Positions 4,122 through 41,524 of a DNA stretch of 41,524 bases are shown here, piece by piece. Every line of letters starts with the position of its first letter. Positions within the stretch are counted from its first letter, which is position 1. The notes below the pieces were generated by a model. That model worked only from the letters and a program-made list of their open reading frames with translations. It was not told where the DNA came from and made no database searches. The DNA lies in the IMG/VR virus record IMGVR_UViG_2648501334_000009, positions 1 to 41,524 of that record. One strand, given 5' to 3'. The translations under genes were made by a program, and so were the position numbers. The stretch comes from a virus. Taxonomy: Duplodnaviria > Heunggongvirae > Uroviricota > Caudoviricetes.

Positions 4122-4264
4122 TGTCAGATACCAAAAGAAGTTATAAGGAAGATGGATATACCCCTATTGAAAAAGGGTATCAGCCTAAAAATGACTTGGC
4201 TAATAATGGTTTTCAACCTTCGAAGCAAACTTCCCAGCCAGCTCCACCACCCAAAAAACCATAA
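4121..4264 (+). CDS. Small hypothetical protein, 47 aa (below the ORF-track cutoff)
   Basis: ATG overlaps the stop of the upstream ORF (TGATG); translates to MSDTKRSYKEDGYTPIEKGYQPKNDLANNGFQPSKQTSQPAPPPKKP; same AT-rich block. Confidence 0.35.
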   Translation: MSDTKRSYKEDGYTPIEKGYQPKNDLANNGFQPSKQTSQPAPPPKKP

Positions 4265-34005: not shown

Positions 34006-34347
34006 ATGAGGGGTATTATTTTTCTGTTAGCTGTCTTTTCTGCGTGCAGCGCGTGGGCGGATGGCTTTACGGTTAAATGCGGTGGCTACACTATGGTTGC
34101 AAACCAGGGCGAGTTATCGACAATCAACGGTGAAAGAGTTACCTCTCAAAAAATCACCGAGCTTGGTACCAATGGTTTGAAAGTAGACATGGTGCTTATG
34201 CCTGCCAAAGACGGTAACAACTACGGCTTTGAATACATTCGTCGCCCTGGTACCGAAAAGCGTTTCCTGAACGTCCAGCTGCTGCAGAACAGCATGGACG
34301 CGCCGAAAATCATCGGGTCTTTCCCGTGTAAGAAAGTCTATGGCTAA
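34006..34347 (+). CDS. Secreted/periplasmic protein with N-terminal signal peptide
   Basis: Signal peptide MRGIIFLLAVFSACSAWA followed by a mature domain with paired cysteines; GGGGA ribosome-binding site. Confidence 0.5.
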   Translation: MRGIIFLLAVFSACSAWADGFTVKCGGYTMVANQGELSTINGERVTSQKITELGTNGLKVDMVLMPAKDGNNYGFEYIRRPGTEKRFLNVQLLQNSMDAPKIIGSFPCKKVYG

Positions 34348-34415
34348 ACTTTCTTTCTGGTTAGGAACTTGGATGAAATTTACATCTAATCTATCTGTCT
34401 GGTTTTACAAAGTTG

Positions 34416-34443
34416 TTGCTTGCAGCTAATACTTGTTTAAACT
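34416..34443 (+). promoter_or_regulatory. Candidate sigma70-like promoter for the tail-region cassette
   Basis: TTGCTT, 16 nt, TAAACT in an AT-rich 136-bp spacer upstream of 34484. Confidence 0.25.
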
Positions 34444-34483
34444 ACGTCGACTACAAAATGACTAAGAAGAGTAAAAGCACCTT

Positions 34484-35215
34484 ATGCCAGTAGCGCAACC
34501 AAAAACTGGAGAAGTCGTCGCTAAGCTTGGTCCATCCTTGGAAGCAGGAAGAATCTTGCTTCTTGACCTTGAAAAACAGAAGTTGTTGAGAGATGCCCGT
34601 GCTTTACCTATAAGGTATCAATCTCTAGCACTTGAAGGGCTGATTCTGTTGCTGGATGGCAAAGTGGAGCGAGGTATCGAGGCGATTGAGACATCTCTAG
34701 CCATATGCCCGACAGATCCTGTTACTTGGAACAATTATTCTAGCGCACTAAGCAACCTTGGGCTTTACTCTAAACGGCGAGAGTTGCTTACTCGGGCTCT
34801 CGACTACGACTTCCCCTGCATGGTCGAACATGCTTTAAATTTTGCGGCCTTCTGGGCTGATGGGGAGATTCTCGATATGGCTATCGCTAAGCTTGAGAAA
34901 TTTGGTCAAACTGAAAAAGAAAAGCATGTATCTGCATTGGAAACCGCTGTAGTTTTGAGCAACTTAGGCGGTCCAATGAGTGACGGTTTGAAAAAAGCTG
35001 CAGATGTATTGATGTACATTGTGGAAAGCGAATCACTCCGTGCTAAAACCTCCAGTCTGCTTACCGATGGTGAGGGTTATGGTTCTTTTTCTGTTGGCAT
35101 CGAAACTGAAGACGCAGAGTATCTTTCATATCTTAACGATAAGGTCGTTGATGAGATGATTGAAAGAGGTCTAGAAACGGGATGCAGTGTCGCTTACTTT
35201 GAGGCGGTGAACTGA
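34484..35215 (+). CDS. Hypothetical helical repeat (TPR-like) protein, first gene of an accessory cassette
   Basis: 243 aa, helix-rich with TPR-like segments; lower GC than the neighbours; preceded by AT-rich non-coding DNA. Confidence 0.45.
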   Translation: MPVAQPKTGEVVAKLGPSLEAGRILLLDLEKQKLLRDARALPIRYQSLALEGLILLLDGKVERGIEAIETSLAICPTDPVTWNNYSSALSNLGLYSKRRELLTRALDYDFPCMVEHALNFAAFWADGEILDMAIAKLEKFGQTEKEKHVSALETAVVLSNLGGPMSDGLKKAADVLMYIVESESLRAKTSSLLTDGEGYGSFSVGIETEDAEYLSYLNDKVVDEMIERGLETGCSVAYFEAVN

Positions 35216-35637
35216 TGCCTGTAGCGATTAACTGCTTTCTGGAGATGGCTAAAAGCTCTATTGAGAATAGCGGTGAACAGTGGACGCGTAATGCGATAAG
35301 TAGAGCGTATTATACGATGTATCATTCAGCGTTATTGCTCACGGATGGCTATATCCCAACTCAAGATGAGAAAGGGCAAAAGTTACCCGGTGGGGTACAT
35401 GCGAGGCTTTCTGAATATCTTTGCGGCGAGAATGCAGCTCTAGCACATAGTCTTGACCGAACTTCTGCCAAAAAGGTTGGGCTTAAGCTCAAAACCGCAC
35501 ATCACCGAAGAGTCATTGCTGATTATAATCTTGATAAGCACGTTAATCGGATTGATGCTTGTAGTACCATCAAGGATGCAGAGGATTTGCAGTCACTTAT
35601 TGCTGGTATGATTGATACCAAAAAAACTGCAAGTTAA
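35215..35637 (+). CDS. Hypothetical HEPN-like helical protein, second gene of the accessory cassette
   Basis: ATGA start/stop overlap with the upstream gene; 'AISRAYYTMYHSALLL' helix-hairpin resembles a HEPN N-terminus, but no clear Rx4-6H motif. Confidence 0.4.
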   Translation: MPVAINCFLEMAKSSIENSGEQWTRNAISRAYYTMYHSALLLTDGYIPTQDEKGQKLPGGVHARLSEYLCGENAALAHSLDRTSAKKVGLKLKTAHHRRVIADYNLDKHVNRIDACSTIKDAEDLQSLIAGMIDTKKTAS

Positions 35638-35656
35638 GCCTATTAAGTAATTAATA

Positions 35657-35681
35657 AAACCCGCCACCCGGCGGGTTTTTT
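35657..35681 (+). terminator. Rho-independent terminator
   Basis: AAAA-CCCGCC-ACCC-GGCGGG-TTTTTT immediately after the cassette. Confidence 0.75.
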
Positions 35682-35700
35682 GCTTTCTGGAGCCTACCAA

Positions 35701-36453
35701 ATGGCATTATCTGACCAGACCCGCAGCGGCGACCTTGCCGAAACATTCAAATCAGAGCGGGACACAACAAAGAACCAGATCCGTGTTGCTTTGCCTGGCA
35801 TCGTCCAGTCATTCGATCCTGACGCGGTGACAGCGGTTGTGCAGCCTGCGATCCGTTCGGTTGAAACTGACAACGACGGCAACCGCGTTACCAAAAATTA
35901 CCCGCTGTTGGTGGATGTGCCGGTGATATTTCCGCGCGGCGGCGGCTGCACGTTAACTTTCCCGGTGGAAGCCGGCGATGAATGCCTGGTGATTTTTGCC
36001 GATCGCTGCATCGATTTCTGGTGGCAGAACGGCGGGATACAGGAGCCGGTTGATGACAGAATGCATGATTTATCGGATGCGTTTTGTATTGTCGGTCCCC
36101 AGTCGCAGGCAAGGAAGATTAGCGGTATTAATACCAGTGCCACACAGTTGCGTAGTGACGATGGCAGCACCTATTTTGAGCTTAATCCTGATACCGGGAA
36201 AATTAAAATTGTCGCTCCGGGTGGTCTTGATGTGGTTACCCCTCTGGCTGATTTTTCTGAGAAAGTAACCATTCATGGCCTGTTAACCTGGTTGGGGGGC
36301 ATGGTGGGGTCTGTGGTTTCTGGTGTGGCTTCAAAAATCACTGGTGCTGTTGAGTTTTTGGGGAGCGTGAAGGCTAACGGCAAGCCAATCGATGATACGC
36401 ACACTCATGGTGGTGTTCAGCGCGGCGGAAGCAATACTGATGGGGTAAACTGA
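35701..36453 (+). CDS. Baseplate spike/assembly protein V-like
   Basis: ATG at 35701 with GGAG upstream; Gly-rich beta protein in the position before W-like and J-like genes. Confidence 0.55.
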   Translation: MALSDQTRSGDLAETFKSERDTTKNQIRVALPGIVQSFDPDAVTAVVQPAIRSVETDNDGNRVTKNYPLLVDVPVIFPRGGGCTLTFPVEAGDECLVIFADRCIDFWWQNGGIQEPVDDRMHDLSDAFCIVGPQSQARKISGINTSATQLRSDDGSTYFELNPDTGKIKIVAPGGLDVVTPLADFSEKVTIHGLLTWLGGMVGSVVSGVASKITGAVEFLGSVKANGKPIDDTHTHGGVQRGGSNTDGVN

Positions 36454-36806
36454 TGCGATACAGACGTGAAGACGCCGATGGCGATTACACCTTTGGCAGC
36501 GGTGATGACACCTGGCTGATTAACTCGCCTGAGGCCGTAGCACAGGCTGTGAAAACGCGATTCGAATTGTGGTATGGGCAATGGTTTCTCGACACCACCG
36601 AAGGGACTCCGTGGATCCAGTCTGTGCTCGGTAAGCAGAAGCCGGAAACCTACAACCTGGCGATCCGTAAGCGCATCCTCGAAACGCGGGGCGTTAAATC
36701 AATCCTCTCTTTCAATACGACAGTGGATACCACGACCCGACGTGTCATGTTTTCCGCTGAAATCGACACTCTTTATGGAATAACGACTGTTACATCGGAG
36801 GCGTAA
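36453..36806 (+). CDS. Baseplate wedge protein (GPW/gp25-like)
   Basis: 117 aa, translationally coupled upstream of the J-like gene. Confidence 0.55.
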   Translation: MRYRREDADGDYTFGSGDDTWLINSPEAVAQAVKTRFELWYGQWFLDTTEGTPWIQSVLGKQKPETYNLAIRKRILETRGVKSILSFNTTVDTTTRRVMFSAEIDTLYGITTVTSEA

Positions 36807-38005: not shown

Positions 38006-38682
38006 GCAAATACACCGAACTAATCACGAACTACCACGCCACCAAACCTAAATTTCTTGCGCATGTTGATCTGATGACCCGGCCACTTATTGATGTTGCG
38101 GCTGCCACCAGAGGGCTGATTACTGCATTTGATATTGACTCTGCGGTTGGTGTGCAACTTGACATTCTGGGATTGTGGATCGGACGTAGCCGTGTTGTCA
38201 GCCAGCCTATCTCAGGTGTCTATTTCAGCTGGGATACCGACGGGCTTGGATATGATCAGGGGGTATGGCAGGGACCATACGATCCTGATTCCGGATACAT
38301 GTACCTCAGCGATGAAACTTATCGTGTCATTCTTAAAGCGAAGATTGCGATTAATAACTGGGATGGACGGAATGATTCGCTTCCGGCAATTCTTGACGCT
38401 GCAACAGCAGGATCCGGGCTGCGAATGCAGATAGTCGATAACCAGGACATGACGATATCGGTCTGGGTCTTTCCTGATACTGATATTTCAGATGTATCGC
38501 GTGAGTTAATTGCGGCAATTAAACAGGGGTATCTCACAGTAAAAGCCGCCGGGGTATGGGCGGGTGGCATTGAAACACCTTCGGTGGAAACCCCATCGGA
38601 AGGCTCAAAATTTTTTGGTTTTGATATGGATAACGAATTCATCAGTGGTTTTGATGTAGGAGCATGGGGAGTATTACTCTGA
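38002..38682 (+). CDS. Baseplate/tail protein I-like
   Basis: 226 aa immediately upstream of the tail fibre gene, translationally coupled. Confidence 0.5.
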
Positions 38683-39515
38683 TGGCGAAAAATGACTTTA
38701 AAGCGTTTGCAACGGATCGAAATGCCAATGTTATATCGCAGGAGGAATGGGAAGCGTTGCCCGCGCTTTTATCCGGATTTACAGCAGGGAAAGCCTCCAG
38801 TGCGCAAGTCAATAAGGTTATTCGGCAGGCCAGCTTTATTGCTGCAGCTCTGGCCCAGTTTGTAAGTGATAAAACGCAACGGGATGTGCTTGATAATGGT
38901 GATCTGCCCGGTTTTGTTGAATTGCTGGGATCGGGGTTTGCTGTTGAATACCTGAGCCGCAAGAATCCGTTTGGCGATATCAAATCGGATGGCACGGTGA
39001 AAACAGCTCTCGAAAACCTTGGTTTGGGAGAAGGCTCTGCATTACCTGTTGGTGTGCCTGTTCCATGGCCTTCAGTCACACCGCCAACAGGCTGGCTGAA
39101 ATGCAACGGTGCGGCTTTTTCTCCTGAAGAATACCCGGAACTGGCAAAGGCTTACCCGACAAATAAATTGCCTGATTTACGTGGTGAGTTCATTCGTGGC
39201 TGGGATGATGGAAGAGGGATTGATACTAACCGTAGCTTGCTTTCGTCACAGGGAGATACCATTCGGAATATAACAGGATTTATAAATGAAGTTAAAGGCA
39301 CCATTGATACAGCAACTTTCAGGTTACAGACTGGTACTGGTGCTTTTGCCTTAGCATCTCAAGCTACGCGAAATATCTATAATAACCTAGGCACATATGA
39401 AACAAAAAATACCCCTTACACAGGATTCAGTTTTGATGCATCCAGGGTTGTACCAACAGCATCAGAGAATCGCCCTCGAAACATTGCATTTAACTATATT
39501 GTGAGAGCAGCATAA
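38682..39515 (+). CDS. Tail fibre protein with tail-collar-like domain
   Basis: '[31 protein letters not shown]' collar-type motif; followed by a tail fibre assembly gene. Confidence 0.7.
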
Positions 39516-40117
39516 TGGATAAAGCAATATTAAATAGTGAGCTTATTGCTACAAAGTCGGGGGATATTACCGTTTATAACTATGATAGTGAGACGCAGGA
39601 ATATATTTCAGCTTCAACTGAATATCTTGCCATTGGTGTCGGTATTCCTGCATATTCCTGTTTAGATGCTCCAGGTGCCTACAAAGCTGGTTATGCAATC
39701 TGCCGCTCTGCAGATTTTAACTCATGGGAATATGTAACAGACCATCGCGGTGAAATCATCTATAACACCGAAACAGGAGAATCAAAAGAAATCACAGCTC
39801 CGGGTGATTACCCTGATAATACAACCACTATCGCCCCGTTAACGCCATACGATAAATGGGATGGTGAGAAATGGGTGACGGATACCGAAGCACAGCATAG
39901 CGCCGCAGTAGATGCAGCAGAAGCACAGCGCCAGTCACTGATTGATACTGCAATGGCTTCAATCAGTCTGATTCAGCTGAAATTGCAGGCCGGACGTAAA
40001 CTGACGCAGGCAGAAACAACCAGCCTTAACGCTGTGCTGGATTACATTGACGCGGTGACGGCAACAGATACCAGCACCGCGCCGGATGTCATCTGGCCTG
40101 AACTGCCGGAGGCGTAG
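39515..40117 (+). CDS. Tail fibre assembly protein (Tfa)
   Basis: 200 aa; conserved C-terminal region ending 'DVIWPELPEA', shared with the oppositely oriented copy. Confidence 0.7.
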   Translation: MDKAILNSELIATKSGDITVYNYDSETQEYISASTEYLAIGVGIPAYSCLDAPGAYKAGYAICRSADFNSWEYVTDHRGEIIYNTETGESKEITAPGDYPDNTTTIAPLTPYDKWDGEKWVTDTEAQHSAAVDAAEAQRQSLIDTAMASISLIQLKLQAGRKLTQAETTSLNAVLDYIDAVTATDTSTAPDVIWPELPEA

Positions 40118-40529
40118 GCCATTCAATATCTGGCGCACTGGCGGTATCGACCAGCTCCAGTGCGTCCAGATAATCCAGCCACAAATTATATTGTGCCAGT
40201 TCCTCACCTTTCAGACGACCAATAGCTGCTTTACCAGGCCATTGCTTACCGTTCATATAATCGTTGGCCTGATTAATCAGTTGCTGCTTTTCCAGTTCGG
40301 CTGCAGCAATCTGTTCCTCATGTGTTGGTGGTGGAATTTCAGACCATGCAGGAAAACCATTTTCTCCAGCGATACGGATTTTTCCTTTCGGCGGTAATCC
40401 GGAAAACTCAATATACACTTGCTCATCAACTTCAACAGCATCATCTGGCCATGAGTCAGCTTGAGTGTAATCCTCTTTCATCTCCAGCGGATAGAAAGAG
40501 TTTGTAGTCGCGGAATATATGTAATTCAT
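40089..40529 (-). CDS. Alternative tail fibre assembly protein (Tfa'), inverted orientation
   Basis: 146 aa; C-terminus 'DIEWPTPPAVQAR' parallels the plus-strand Tfa; convergent arrangement typical of invertible G/P/C segments. Confidence 0.65.
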   Translation of the reverse strand: MNYIYSATTNSFYPLEMKEDYTQADSWPDDAVEVDEQVYIEFSGLPPKGKIRIAGENGFPAWSEIPPPTHEEQIAAAELEKQQLINQANDYMNGKQWPGKAAIGRLKGEELAQYNLWLDYLDALELVDTASAPDIEWPTPPAVQAR

Positions 40530-40550
40530 TTTTCACTCCATATAGCTAAA

Positions 40551-40943
40551 TTAACAGCCTAACGCTAAAAATGAAGCGCCGAGGCCAGGAGTACTGGCTC
40601 TGGATATAAATTTAACCGGGTCGGGACTAAAACCTGCACAGGCAATATAACCAACAGCCCCGCTATCTGGTGTGTAGTCTTGTGAGACCAAAACACGCAG
40701 ACATCTGTTTGGAAATGCAATCGGGAAATGGGTTACTACATCCTGTGCAATGCCTGGTGCGCCGATTGAGCCCCACTGAAGAATAAAACCTGATGGTAAT
40801 TTTTGATATCCAGTACCTGAAACAGAAAGCGTGAAGCTACCCATATCAGGTATCTGATTCGCCCCTGTCCCTACATTCCTTTTAGCCGCTTCTCCCAAAC
40901 CAACATTTATGAAAATGCAGAAATAACGAGCAAATGGCATCAT
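40551..40943 (-). CDS. Alternative tail fibre C-terminal segment, currently uncoupled from the fibre 5' part
   Basis: '[12 protein letters not shown]' parallels 'GFINEVKG' in the expressed fibre; lies between Tfa' and the invertase gene. Confidence 0.55.
40888..40913. promoter_or_regulatory. hix/gix/pix-like crossover site for the invertase
   Basis: TTCTCCCAAACCAACATTTATGAAAA resembles the 26-bp hix/gix consensus as I recall it (TTCTTGAAAACCAAGGTTTTTGATAA); directly upstream of the invertase gene. Confidence 0.5.
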
Positions 40944-40969
40944 TCCTGCTTTTGTCAGGGGGCGCTACC

Positions 40970-41524
40970 ATGCTTATTGGCTATGTACGCGTATCAACAA
41001 ATGACCAGAATACCGATCTACAACGTAATGCGTTGAACTGTGCAGGATGCGAGCTGATTTTTGAAGACAAGATAAGCGGTACAAAGTCCGAAAGGCCGGG
41101 ACTGAAAAAACTGCTCAGGACATTATCGGCAGGTGACACTCTGGTTGTCTGGAAGCTGGATCGGCTGGGGCGTAGTATGCGGCATCTGGTCATTCTGGTT
41201 GAGGAGTTGCGCGAACGTGGCGTTAATTTTCGCAGCCTGACGGATGCTATTGATACCAGCACACCGATGGGGCGTTTTTTCTTTCATGTGATGGGGGCCC
41301 TGGCTGAAATGGAACGAGAACTGATTGTTGAACGAACAAAAGCTGGACTGGAAGTTGCTCGCGCACAGGGACGAATTGGTGGACGTCGTCCCAAACTTAC
41401 ACCAGAACAATGGGCGCAGGCCGGGCGACTAATTGCATCAGGAGTTCCTCGCCAGAAGGTGGCGATCATTTATGATGTTGGCGTATCGACTTTGTATAAG
41501 AAGTTTCCGGTCGGAGATAAATGA
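40970..41524 (+). CDS. Serine recombinase, DNA invertase of the Pin/Gin/Hin/Cin family
   Basis: 'MLIGYVRVSTNDQNTDLQRNAL' with catalytic Ser; 'LVVWKLDRLGRS'; C-terminal HTH; near-identical to Pin/Hin as I recall them; AGGGGG ribosome-binding site. Confidence 0.9.
   Translation: MLIGYVRVSTNDQNTDLQRNALNCAGCELIFEDKISGTKSERPGLKKLLRTLSAGDTLVVWKLDRLGRSMRHLVILVEELRERGVNFRSLTDAIDTSTPMGRFFFHVMGALAEMERELIVERTKAGLEVARAQGRIGGRRPKLTPEQWAQAGRLIASGVPRQKVAIIYDVGVSTLYKKFPVGDK

Follow-up and report, generated by a model that had tools for sequence, protein, structure and literature searches.

Layout of the cassette locus

A two-gene cassette lies within the baseplate gene cluster of the window, by which the whole analysed stretch of 41,524 nt is meant. 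The cassette and its flanks comprise the following features.

34006–34347, + strand: 113-aa ORF, conserved and with a signal peptide (phrog_3443); a backbone gene, not cargo, that forms the left anchor of the hotspot
34348–34483, + strand: AT-rich cassette leader, 136 bp, 34% GC
34484–35215, + strand: ORF1, 243 aa, TPR-like array and C-terminal domain
35215–35637, + strand: ORF2, 140 aa, single HEPN domain
35656–35685, + strand: intrinsic terminator, right anchor of the hotspot, a backbone feature
35701–36453, + strand: baseplate spike gene, backbone right flank (Pfam spike N-terminal domain, E = 8.7e-44, plus Apex motif)

Both cassette genes are annotated by RefSeq in 12 E. coli genomes, where the DNA is 99–99.7% identical, and the GC content of the cassette (44.8%) contrasts with the 52% of the flanking tail genes. 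The two translationally coupled genes described in an earlier, sequence-only reading of this DNA were found with the proposed sizes, but their overlap is not ATGA; the stop of ORF1 and the start of ORF2 share one nucleotide as TGATG (TGA 35213–35215, ATG 35215–35217). The same reading placed the cassette between a hub-like tail gene and baseplate genes, which was correct on the right, where the spike gene lies, whereas the left neighbour was found to be the 113-aa ORF, itself downstream of the hub gene. RefSeq annotates ATG 35701 as the start of the spike CDS, which places the terminator between the genes. The label "thioredoxin domain" in some RefSeq records refers to the gene after the spike gene, outside the cassette.

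The AT-rich spacer was present as described, with an imperfect 19-nt direct repeat (34344–34362 and 34386–34404) and a sigma-70-like site, TTTACA-18-AATACT, at positions 34404–34433. The candidate promoter fared unevenly; the scan gave one match compared with 2.6 in shuffled sequences, no better than chance, but the leader from about 34400 to the ATG is kept with the cassette in two related loci (L015 and L082), the sequence further upstream differing in L082. It is the conservation of this block, and not the scan, that suggests a promoter.

Exchange at the junction and spread of the pair

The hairpin downstream of ORF2 (35656–35679) consists of a G+C-rich 10-bp stem and a 4-nt loop, followed by T6, with a folding energy of −21.8 kcal/mol (z = −4.2) that none of 200 shuffled sequences equalled. 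The description of a strong terminator was thus appropriate, but its attribution to the cassette was not. In all related loci with inspected junctions the same hairpin was found directly upstream of the spike gene whatever the cargo, with a conserved stem and a variable loop, and the empty sites L054 and L058 also carry it. The terminator belongs to the phage backbone and is not specific to the cassette and, because relatives with an empty site have the same terminator, an internal terminator cannot mark an insertion. It illustrates how a conserved terminator can delimit, at a fixed right-hand end, a swap site within a late operon. In other phage backbones a terminator also follows the pair by about 5–45 nt, and near-identical CCCGCC-type hairpins were found in two of these loci (L089 and L098).

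The junction itself was found to be highly polymorphic. The distance separating the 113-aa gene from the spike gene varies from 64 bp to about 1390 bp among 83 related loci, and the interval holds more than 12 unrelated types of cargo. The 113-aa ORF adjoins the hub gene in all 84 related loci, with variability starting at its last codons and stop codon. The proposed search for related prophages without the block at the same junction returned many, including L054 and L058, with gaps of 64–72 bp. The exact cassette was present in 12 of the 355 E. coli genomes carrying the flanking sequence, while the 33 occurrences of the pair at the hotspot all hold both genes, in at least seven sequence variants. 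The moron call of the sequence-only reading was therefore upheld, in the Hendrix/Juhala sense of the term, not by its reasoning from an internal terminator but by presence/absence and replacement polymorphism among close relatives at the same junction, the drop to an atypical base composition and the recurrence of the pair in unrelated phage backbones. The prophage, a SEN34-like temperate myovirus integrated in E. coli, carries the block as exchangeable cargo in a hotspot that is bounded on the left by the conserved 113-aa gene and on the right by the backbone terminator immediately preceding the spike gene.

The commonest other cargo was found to be a small DUF4282 membrane protein. In other phages the slot is occupied by PD-Lambda-1, a defence-system model of PADLOC-DB (E = 1.6e-84), or by a PD-T4-9-like three-gene cassette with a match to PD-T4-9_C (E = 8.8e-7). 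At least one YafO-toxin pair (192 + 138 aa, Pfam YafO E = 3.5e-17) shares the slot, and a second pair, of 207 + 125 aa, is probably one that RefSeq labels as a YafO-family toxin. A further occupant is a single gene with a canonical HEPN motif, RNNLFHG, and a 140-aa membrane protein and DUF2335 are also among the cargo. Inferring the function of the pair from these companions is suggestive only.

The pair occupies accessory slots in at least seven phage backbones, as well as in other mobile elements, of Gamma- and Betaproteobacteria. The phage slots include P22-like, T7-like, lambda-like, other siphovirus, lambdoid nin-like and Vibrio P2-like ones. In the Vibrio P2-like phage the pair lies between the late-control gene and replication gene A, which we take, from the P2 gene map, to match the P2 hotspot. 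A scan of species-representative genomes, made with a closer alignment than that of the 105 ORF2 relatives considered below, gave 21 loci in taxa that include Shewanella, Morganella, Proteus, Yersinia, Xenorhabdus, Methylocaldum, Gallionella and Azoarcus. In 15 of these the ORF2-like gene is intact and immediately preceded by a detectable ORF1-like gene, and two more have an upstream ORF of the same size that the ORF1 model did not detect. A Pfam scan of three neighbourhoods yielded an integrase, a Mu F-like phage protein or TrbL.

The TPR-like and HEPN proteins

The assignment of ORF1 as TPR-like and ORF2 as HEPN-like was borne out for both proteins. ORF1 is acidic (pI 4.65, charge −14) and consists of ten helices in a TPR-like array (residues 8–182) followed by a small C-terminal alpha/beta domain of beta-beta-alpha-beta order (187–242). 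Its mean pairwise identity is 25%, compared with 39% for ORF2, the latter being the more conserved in 99% of comparisons, and almost no residue of ORF1 is invariant, as would be anticipated of a binding or specificity partner rather than of an enzyme. ORF1 is predicted to sense or regulate ORF2, or otherwise to be its partner. Neither a recognisable domain for DNA binding or antitoxin activity nor an NTP-transferase match was found in ORF1, which has a TPR-like fold instead. The C-terminus of ORF1 (YGSFSVGIETED) was also considered as a nucleotidyltransferase G-S...D-x-D motif and rejected, the residues being unconserved in two variants (L002 and L004) and the predicted fold being beta-beta-alpha-beta.

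Scans against Pfam, NCBIfam and PADLOC placed neither protein in a family above threshold, and PHROGs returned families of unknown function only. In PADLOC-DB v2, ORF1 had no match and the sole match of ORF2 was a weak one to the HEPN_IX model (E = 1.6e-4 over 36 residues). The window ORF2 does not match Pfam PF05168 at E ≤ 1, the L004 variant reaches 19.6 bits against a cut-off of 22, and 27 of the 105 ORF2 relatives match at E ≤ 1e-3 (best 1.4e-7). For this group of small HEPN proteins, a profile search recovered about 1,500 clusters at 50% identity.

ORF2 is mildly basic (pI 8.4) and forms an up-and-down bundle of four helices in which a long insert separates helices 2 and 3, and the prospect that it might lack a HEPN-like fold was not realised. 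The canonical Rx4-6H motif, which the sequence-only reading could not make out, is indeed absent from the canonical site at the end of helix 3, which reads R99-V-I-A-D-Y104; the histidine position is a tyrosine in 33 of 33 close relatives and in 105 of 105 distant ones, whereas the arginine is invariant. Throughout the 105 relatives (23–74% identity), E21, R25, Y32, R99 and Y104 are invariant, and R30, Y33, H37, H62 and D103 are at least 90% conserved, giving a conserved polar set of E21, R25, R30, H37, H62, R99, D103 and Y104. The acidic residue E21 stands at the start of helix 2, and H62 lies within the insert, between the helices of residues 21–43 and 82–104. Such an arrangement, with the arginine kept and the motif histidine absent, was proposed by Anantharaman et al. 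as an alternative active site in AF0298-like HEPNs and AbiV (PMC3710099). The missing motif is accounted for by the known AF0298-like subgroup, in which the arginine is retained and a different histidine is conserved (PMC3710099), and ORF2 is a single HEPN domain of the AF0298/UPF0332-like type. ORF2 is the predicted effector, probably an RNase, but HEPN domains that bind RNA without catalysis also exist (PMC3710099).

Proposed function and related systems

The coupled genes and the co-occurrence of the partners (33 of 33 at the hotspot) give the pair a type II toxin-antitoxin layout, and the toxin or defence role raised in the sequence-only reading was supported. The cassette is probably a so far undescribed phage-defence or toxin module, and the reading that we hold with moderate confidence is that of a HEPN effector under the control of its TPR partner, with a role in defence or as a toxin-antitoxin pair. 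The cargo would thus be a self-contained two-gene conflict module. In a lysogen, transcription of the pair would start at a putative promoter of its own and end at the backbone terminator. ORF1, a non-enzymatic and rapidly diversifying TPR protein, would be made first, with translation coupled to that of ORF2; it would bind ORF2, hold it inactive in the lysogen and serve as the specificity element. ORF2 would most likely dimerise and cleave RNA through R99 together with E21, R25 and H62, which would replace the canonical Rx4-6H pair. ORF2 would be set free when ORF1 is lost or when a protein of an infecting phage binds, leading to breakdown of the cell's RNA and an aborted infection. If there is no phage trigger, this logic would make the pair an addiction module of the toxin-antitoxin type. 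In the lytic phase, late transcription, dependent on the Q antiterminator encoded by the prophage, would continue past the terminator. A more specific form of this proposal is only tentative, namely that the pair is a new and widespread anti-phage system in which a standalone TPR protein recognises a phage protein directly and licenses a histidine-less HEPN (with a site formed by R99, H62, E21 and Y104) to cut RNA. If true, it would be a minimal sensor-effector pair free of an NTPase, it would provide the first demonstrated activity in the large AF0298/UPF0332 branch of HEPNs, and the terminator-bounded slot in the baseplate cluster would be a new defence hotspot usable for the discovery of systems.

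A pure addiction module, whose sole effect would be to stabilise itself or its prophage and which would play no part against other phages, would share the type II-like architecture of coupled genes with an acidic first and a basic second protein, and the YafO toxin pairs in the slot and the presence of the pair on many mobile elements are consistent with it. ORF1 is, however, larger than the toxin, lacks a DNA-binding domain and diversifies quickly, as repeat-type binding proteins do, so that a sensor fits better than a labile antitoxin, and systems listed in PADLOC-DB as defensive occupy the same slot. This reading is considered unlikely, and it overlaps with the main explanation, since many toxin-antitoxin systems act in defence too. 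A benefit to the phage itself or a counter-defence role was judged quite unlikely. ORF2 would then be a non-catalytic RNA- or nucleotide-binding protein, with ORF1 as an adaptor, modulating the expression of host or prophage genes or neutralising a host defence in lytic growth, when the pair would be transcribed together with the late tail genes, as might be suspected from the missing catalytic histidine, the existence of inactive regulatory HEPN domains such as MtlR (PMC3710099), the position on the coding strand of a late operon, where Q should read through the terminator, and the weak evidence for a separate promoter. Against this, E21, R25, R99 and Y104 are invariant and H37, H62 and D103 are kept down to 23% identity, a pattern typical of active sites; nor is the pair confined to late operons or to phages (it was found by an integrase, and in a conjugative-element region with TrbL), and the other occupants of the slot are defence or toxin genes.

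Nothing but the position between the baseplate hub and spike genes speaks for a virion or tail-assembly component specific to this phage, such as a chaperone or a baseplate accessory protein. The sequence-only reading would have been overturned had both proteins been conserved virion components, but most relatives lack the cassette or carry unrelated genes instead, and viable ones such as the isolated phage SEN34 do without both proteins. The same pair is found in podoviruses, siphoviruses, a P2-like replication-region slot and non-phage elements, and its GC content is lower than that of the tail genes; a structural role is effectively refuted.

Among the closest known systems are the AF0298-like/UPF0332 HEPNs (PDB 2hsb; PF05168; "HEPN-T" of Anantharaman et al. 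2013), for which no activity report on the subgroup itself was found in the literature. Classical members are standalone, or paired or fused with minimal nucleotidyltransferases (PMC3710099), whereas the window system has a constant TPR partner and is carried on phages and further kinds of mobile element; associations of HEPN genes with TPR and with Sel1 genes had been noted in 2013 (PMC3710099). The HEPN-MNT (HepT-MntA) type VII toxin-antitoxin systems, such as Shewanella SO_3166/SO_3165, differ in the partner, and the window pair has neither the adjacent minimal nucleotidyltransferase nor the RX4HXY motif, in place of which ORF2 has R99x3D103Y104. With a TPR partner and this motif replaced, neutralisation by AMPylation is not expected. 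AbiV of Lactococcus was grouped with AF0298 by Anantharaman et al. as lacking the motif histidine and having an alternative one (PMC3710099), and it has since been reported to be an anti-phage RNase that carries the Rx4-6H consensus and has an RNA antitoxin (bioRxiv 10.1101/2024.05.05.592566); the partner in the window is instead a 243-aa protein, and the PADLOC AbiV models do not match ORF2. A type III (RNA antitoxin) arrangement like that of AbiV was rejected, as no tandem repeat array was found at the locus and Rfam gave no family above threshold, only terminator-driven leader matches far under the gathering scores.

Tha, a HEPN RNase encoded by S. aureus prophages and triggered by phage tail proteins (PMC11087260), is a likely functional analogue, being a prophage-borne HEPN effector that confers protection on the lysogen and has to be prevented from damaging the phage that encodes it (PMC11087260). 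It is, however, a single 301-aa protein of another HEPN family, with a canonical R-x4-H and an unrelated N-terminal region, is inhibited by Ith and sits elsewhere in its genome than the window pair. Two entries that look similar were examined and set aside. The "HEPN-TPR" of the P4 hotspot (Rousset et al. 2022) is one large protein, unrelated to the window pair, that has a canonical RSSFVH motif (PMC9122126), given only among the "additional tested systems" and not among the systems listed as defensive (PMC9122126). DefensePredictor DS-28, a HEPN with a 252-aa partner, belongs to another family, has a canonical RNSVAH motif and carries its two genes in reverse order, and the accessions and sequence motifs of the window pair were absent from the searched portion of the supplements of that paper. 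The P2-like and P4-like anti-phage hotspots (Rousset et al. 2022, PMC9122126) and classical morons likewise swap unrelated defence or toxin cargo between conserved phage genes, but the present hotspot lies inside the SEN34-like baseplate cluster with a conserved terminator on its right. Literature searches by protein accession, HEPN_IX, phrog_5176, UPF0332 with defence and SEN34 hotspots retrieved no description of the pair or the slot.

If the module works, the ways in which HEPN toxins are controlled would come to include a protein partner that is not a nucleotidyltransferase, and a function and a testable active site (E21, R25, H62, R99, Y104) could be given to many small HEPN proteins that are now labelled hypothetical or UPF0332. 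Should the pair prove to be a working defence or toxin module, the slot would define a new cargo hotspot in a common enterobacterial prophage family, found in about 6.5% of complete E. coli genomes, and its other uncharacterised occupants would be ready candidates for defence screens.

Layout of the locus and its surroundings

The window derives from a temperate myovirus, roughly 40 kb in size. The genes annotated in a nearly identical prophage of E. coli include those for an integrase, a Q antiterminator and CI/Cro-type regulators, along with head genes, a lysis cassette and a module for the contractile tail and baseplate. Salmonella phage SEN34 and several E. coli phages obtained by induction are among the named relatives. 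The locus comprises the following features:

34006-34347: 113-aa ORF with a signal peptide (phrog_3443), left of the spacer
Between the 113-aa ORF and ORF1: spacer of 136 bp, 34% GC
34484-35215, +: ORF1, 243 aa
35215-35637, +: ORF2, 140 aa
35656-35685: hairpin, 10-bp G+C-rich stem and T run
35701: start ATG of the spike gene, as annotated by RefSeq at an E. coli locus of 99.7% identity

The stop codon of ORF1 and the start of ORF2 overlap as TGATG, with one base in common, and not as the ATGA of the sequence-only reading. The GC content of the cassette is 44.8% versus 52% for the adjoining tail genes. The hairpin folds with −21.8 kcal/mol (z = −4.2), a value equalled by none of 200 shuffles. 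The spacer is indeed AT-rich, but the promoter proposed within it did not stand out, since its single sigma-70-like match (TTTACA-18-AATACT, 34404-34433) does not exceed the number obtained from shuffled sequence. An imperfect 19-nt direct repeat, CTAAACTTTCTTTCTGGTT and CTAATCTATCTGTCTGGTT (34344-34362 and 34386-34404, 42 bp apart), whose second copy ends at the −35-like hexamer and of which both copies are retained in one comparison locus (L015), may be a pair of operators or a coincidence.

The signal peptide of the 113-aa ORF has a possible lipobox (FSAC, Cys14), and in every relative the gene separates the hub gene from the hotspot; a second, paralogue-like secreted protein of 121 aa is found as cargo in L067 (4353-4718). 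Instead of a tail component, the 113-aa ORF may encode a protein for lysogenic conversion or exclusion. After the spike gene, a 117-aa gene (window 36453-36806, equivalent to 3554-3907 of L099) is labelled 'thioredoxin domain-containing protein' by RefSeq in some genomes, which looks like an annotation artefact; the 117-aa gene at the equivalent position in Ewingella (L092) matches Pfam Sheath_initiator. Further downstream, the tail-fibre region (38664-41524), as judged from ORF translations, resembles an invertible segment:

38664-40117, +: tail-fibre gene and assembly gene
40089-40943, −: alternative fibre C-terminus and assembly gene
From 40934, running off the window: serine-recombinase-like ORF

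The junction as a cargo hotspot

The distance from the 113-aa gene to the spike gene was measured in 80 IMG/VR loci anchored on the former; these are the loci nearest to the window's 113-aa protein, so that cargo frequencies are biased. The gap ranged from 64-72 bp in empty sites (L054 and L058), through 330, 362, 488, 611, 812, 962, 1124 and 1205 bp, to a maximum of about 1390 bp, and was filled by more than a dozen unrelated classes of cargo. The hotspot begins on the left at the 113-aa gene's stop codon and is bordered on the right by a hairpin, ACCCGCC-loop-GGCGGGTTTTTT, which was found in all junctions read out (17 and the window), empty sites included, its stem conserved and its loop variable. 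The terminator is thus part of the phage backbone and cannot serve to identify the cassette as a moron, contrary to the initial argument that an internal terminator marks one. That status rests instead on the replacement polymorphism, with related prophages presenting empty sites or other cargo at the same junction. In lambdoid phages, a terminator inside the late operon halts only transcripts lacking antitermination, and since this prophage has a Q-type antiterminator, the hairpin would be expected to act likewise. Among 5,426 complete E. coli genomes, the flanks were present in 355 and this cassette in only 12. The prophage hotspot appears to be previously undescribed, no paper on it or on the pair having been found in an incomplete coverage of the literature.

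The ORF1-ORF2 pair was the commonest cargo within the biased sample of 113-aa-anchored loci. Cargo related to defence or toxins was as follows:

L070, L074, L075, L080 and L084: 409-aa protein matching the PD-Lambda-1 defence model (E 1.6e-84), with MUG113/T5orf172 domains
L081 and L083: three-gene cassette, the last protein matching PD-T4-9_C (E 8.8e-7)
L036 and L046: two gene pairs with likely YafO-type toxins, one for a 138-aa protein matching Pfam YafO_toxin (E 3.5e-17), the other for a 125-aa protein, from the RefSeq YafO-family toxin label at the junction in several genomes
L056, 4321-4854: 177-aa protein with the canonical HEPN motif RNNLFHG

These occupants indicate that the slot collects defence and toxin genes. 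Membrane-protein cargo comprised a DUF2335 protein, a small DUF4282 protein (17 loci) and a 140-aa protein; a 184-aa cargo protein was weakly similar to PycTM.

Two folds, strict pairing and mobility

The AlphaFold model of ORF2 (pLDDT 91.5) has helices at 5-15, 21-43, 61-70, 73-77, 82-104 and 112-139, and the family profile finds 2hsb by sequence (E 1.5e-3). PF05168 was matched by 27 of 105 ORF2 relatives (23-74% identical to ORF2), with the L004 variant scoring just under the cut-off. An exhaustive profile search returned 1,496 cluster representatives (E <= 1e-3), of which the best 150 were all small, at ~110-180 aa. Across the 105 relatives, which were drawn from these representatives, E21, R25, Y32, R99 and Y104 are invariant, and conservation reaches at least 90% at R30, Y33, H37, H62 and D103. 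At the canonical site the sequence is R99-x4-Y104, in agreement with the earlier remark that no Rx4-6H motif is evident. The motif arginine is likewise kept and the histidine lost in AF0298-like HEPNs and AbiV, for which an alternative site was proposed, formed by another conserved histidine, located in the insert between helices 2 and 3, and an acidic residue of helix 2 (Anantharaman et al., PMC3710099); by the secondary structure of the predicted model, R99, H62 and E21 fit those positions. A later report describes AbiV as an RNase that cleaves rRNA (bioRxiv 10.1101/2024.05.05.592566).

ORF1 (model pLDDT 90) is modelled as ten helices over residues 8-182, followed at the C-terminus by a beta-beta-alpha-beta unit (187-242), and is acidic (pI 4.65, charge −14; ORF2 pI 8.4). 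Among 19 pair variants, mean identity was 25% for ORF1 and 39% for ORF2, ORF2 was the better conserved of the two in 99% of comparisons, their distances correlated (r = 0.92) and ORF1 retained almost no invariant residue, a pattern fitting a non-enzymatic binding partner co-diversifying with its effector.

In 33 of 83 loci (30 of 79 from IMG/VR), relatives of both ORF1 and ORF2 were present, always as a pair, in at least seven variants (243+140, 243+142, 256+131, 258+123, 257+131, 257+126 and 261+131 aa), each with the genes overlapping or within about 1 nt. Versions of the pair, both close and more distant, also occupy other locations:

P22-like phage: between ejection-protein genes and tailspike, which we take to be the sieA and immI position on the P22 map
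T7-like Brenneria prophage
Pantoea: adjoining an integrase and an IS element
Klebsiella siphovirus: between tube/chaperone genes and the tape-measure gene
Lambda-like Lelliottia phage: 3' of the tape-measure gene
Klebsiella phage Chronis: nin-like region (gp57 and gp58)
P2-like Vibrio phage: flanked by the late-control gene and replication gene A

For the Vibrio pair, profile comparison gave 99.8% probability for ORF2 and 94% for ORF1 (E 1e-7, full length). A one-genome-per-species scan added 21 loci, in Shewanella, Morganella, Proteus, Yersinia, Xenorhabdus, Methylocaldum, Gallionella, Azoarcus and other Betaproteobacteria; 15 had an intact ORF2-like gene with a detectable ORF1-like gene immediately upstream, and two more an upstream ORF of matching size missed by the ORF1 model. 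Three of these neighbourhoods contained an integrase, Mu F-like phage protein or TrbL in a Pfam scan.

In the other backbones scanned, and in L089 by eye, an intrinsic terminator lies about 5-45 nt after the pair, those of L089 and L098 being nearly identical to the window's. At the same hotspot in Ewingella (L092, 5430-5505), two tandem CCCGC-type hairpins follow the pair, one directly after the ORF2 stop and the other at the backbone position, which hints that cassettes carry their own terminator and that exchange of cargo may be driven by recombination between hairpins of similar sequence. In other variants of the pair, the leaders of L094 (about 4148-4164) and L096 (equivalent region) contain a palindrome that is perfect or nearly so, TTCAACCAAAGGTTGAA, immediately 5' of a conserved GTTTACC...GGTAATA block; together these are a candidate operator and promoter common to cassettes of different backbones.

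Function of the pair

The feature is real and the sequence-only interpretation of a moron with a HEPN toxin or defence role was broadly borne out. The hotspot, both folds, the conserved site, the strict pairing and the mobility are observed; binding, toxicity, RNase activity, the trigger and the promoter are inferred. The pair is best read as a conflict module built on HEPN, with a TPR-like partner, and somewhat favoured is a HEPN effector controlled by that partner in abortive-infection-type defence or addiction. ORF1, translated first, would bind ORF2 and keep it inactive, its repeat surface acting as a variable specificity element; a phage protein engaging ORF1, or the loss of ORF1, would release ORF2, leading to RNA cleavage and growth arrest. 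With a phage trigger, the outcome would be abortive-infection-type defence of the lysogen; the same arrangement with no trigger would be simple addiction, and addiction as the sole function is considered improbable. A non-catalytic role benefiting the phage or countering defences during lytic growth seems slightly less probable still. A structural role, with the two proteins as conserved virion components, is effectively excluded by the polymorphism, by the empty sites and by SEN34 and other relatives that lack the pair.

A HEPN effector held by its TPR partner would work most like the HEPN toxin systems HepT-MntA, RnlA/LsoA and AbiV, and like Tha, a prophage HEPN defence (PMC11087260). HEPN-MNT was ruled out, as the partner is not a nucleotidyltransferase and ORF2 contains no RX4HXY motif, and so was AbiV, whose models gave no match and for which neither a repeat array nor a known RNA family suggesting an RNA antitoxin was found. 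The pair is not a PADLOC system, the only match being a weak one to the model HEPN_IX, and its proteins differ from those of DefensePredictor DS-28 and from the 'HEPN-TPR' of Rousset et al. (PMC9122126).

The uncharacterised cargo of the slot (DUF4282, the 140-aa membrane protein, DUF2335 and the 184-aa protein) would provide candidates for defence screens. HEPN-based candidates are common; the wide distribution, non-canonical site and clean hotspot make this pair directly testable.
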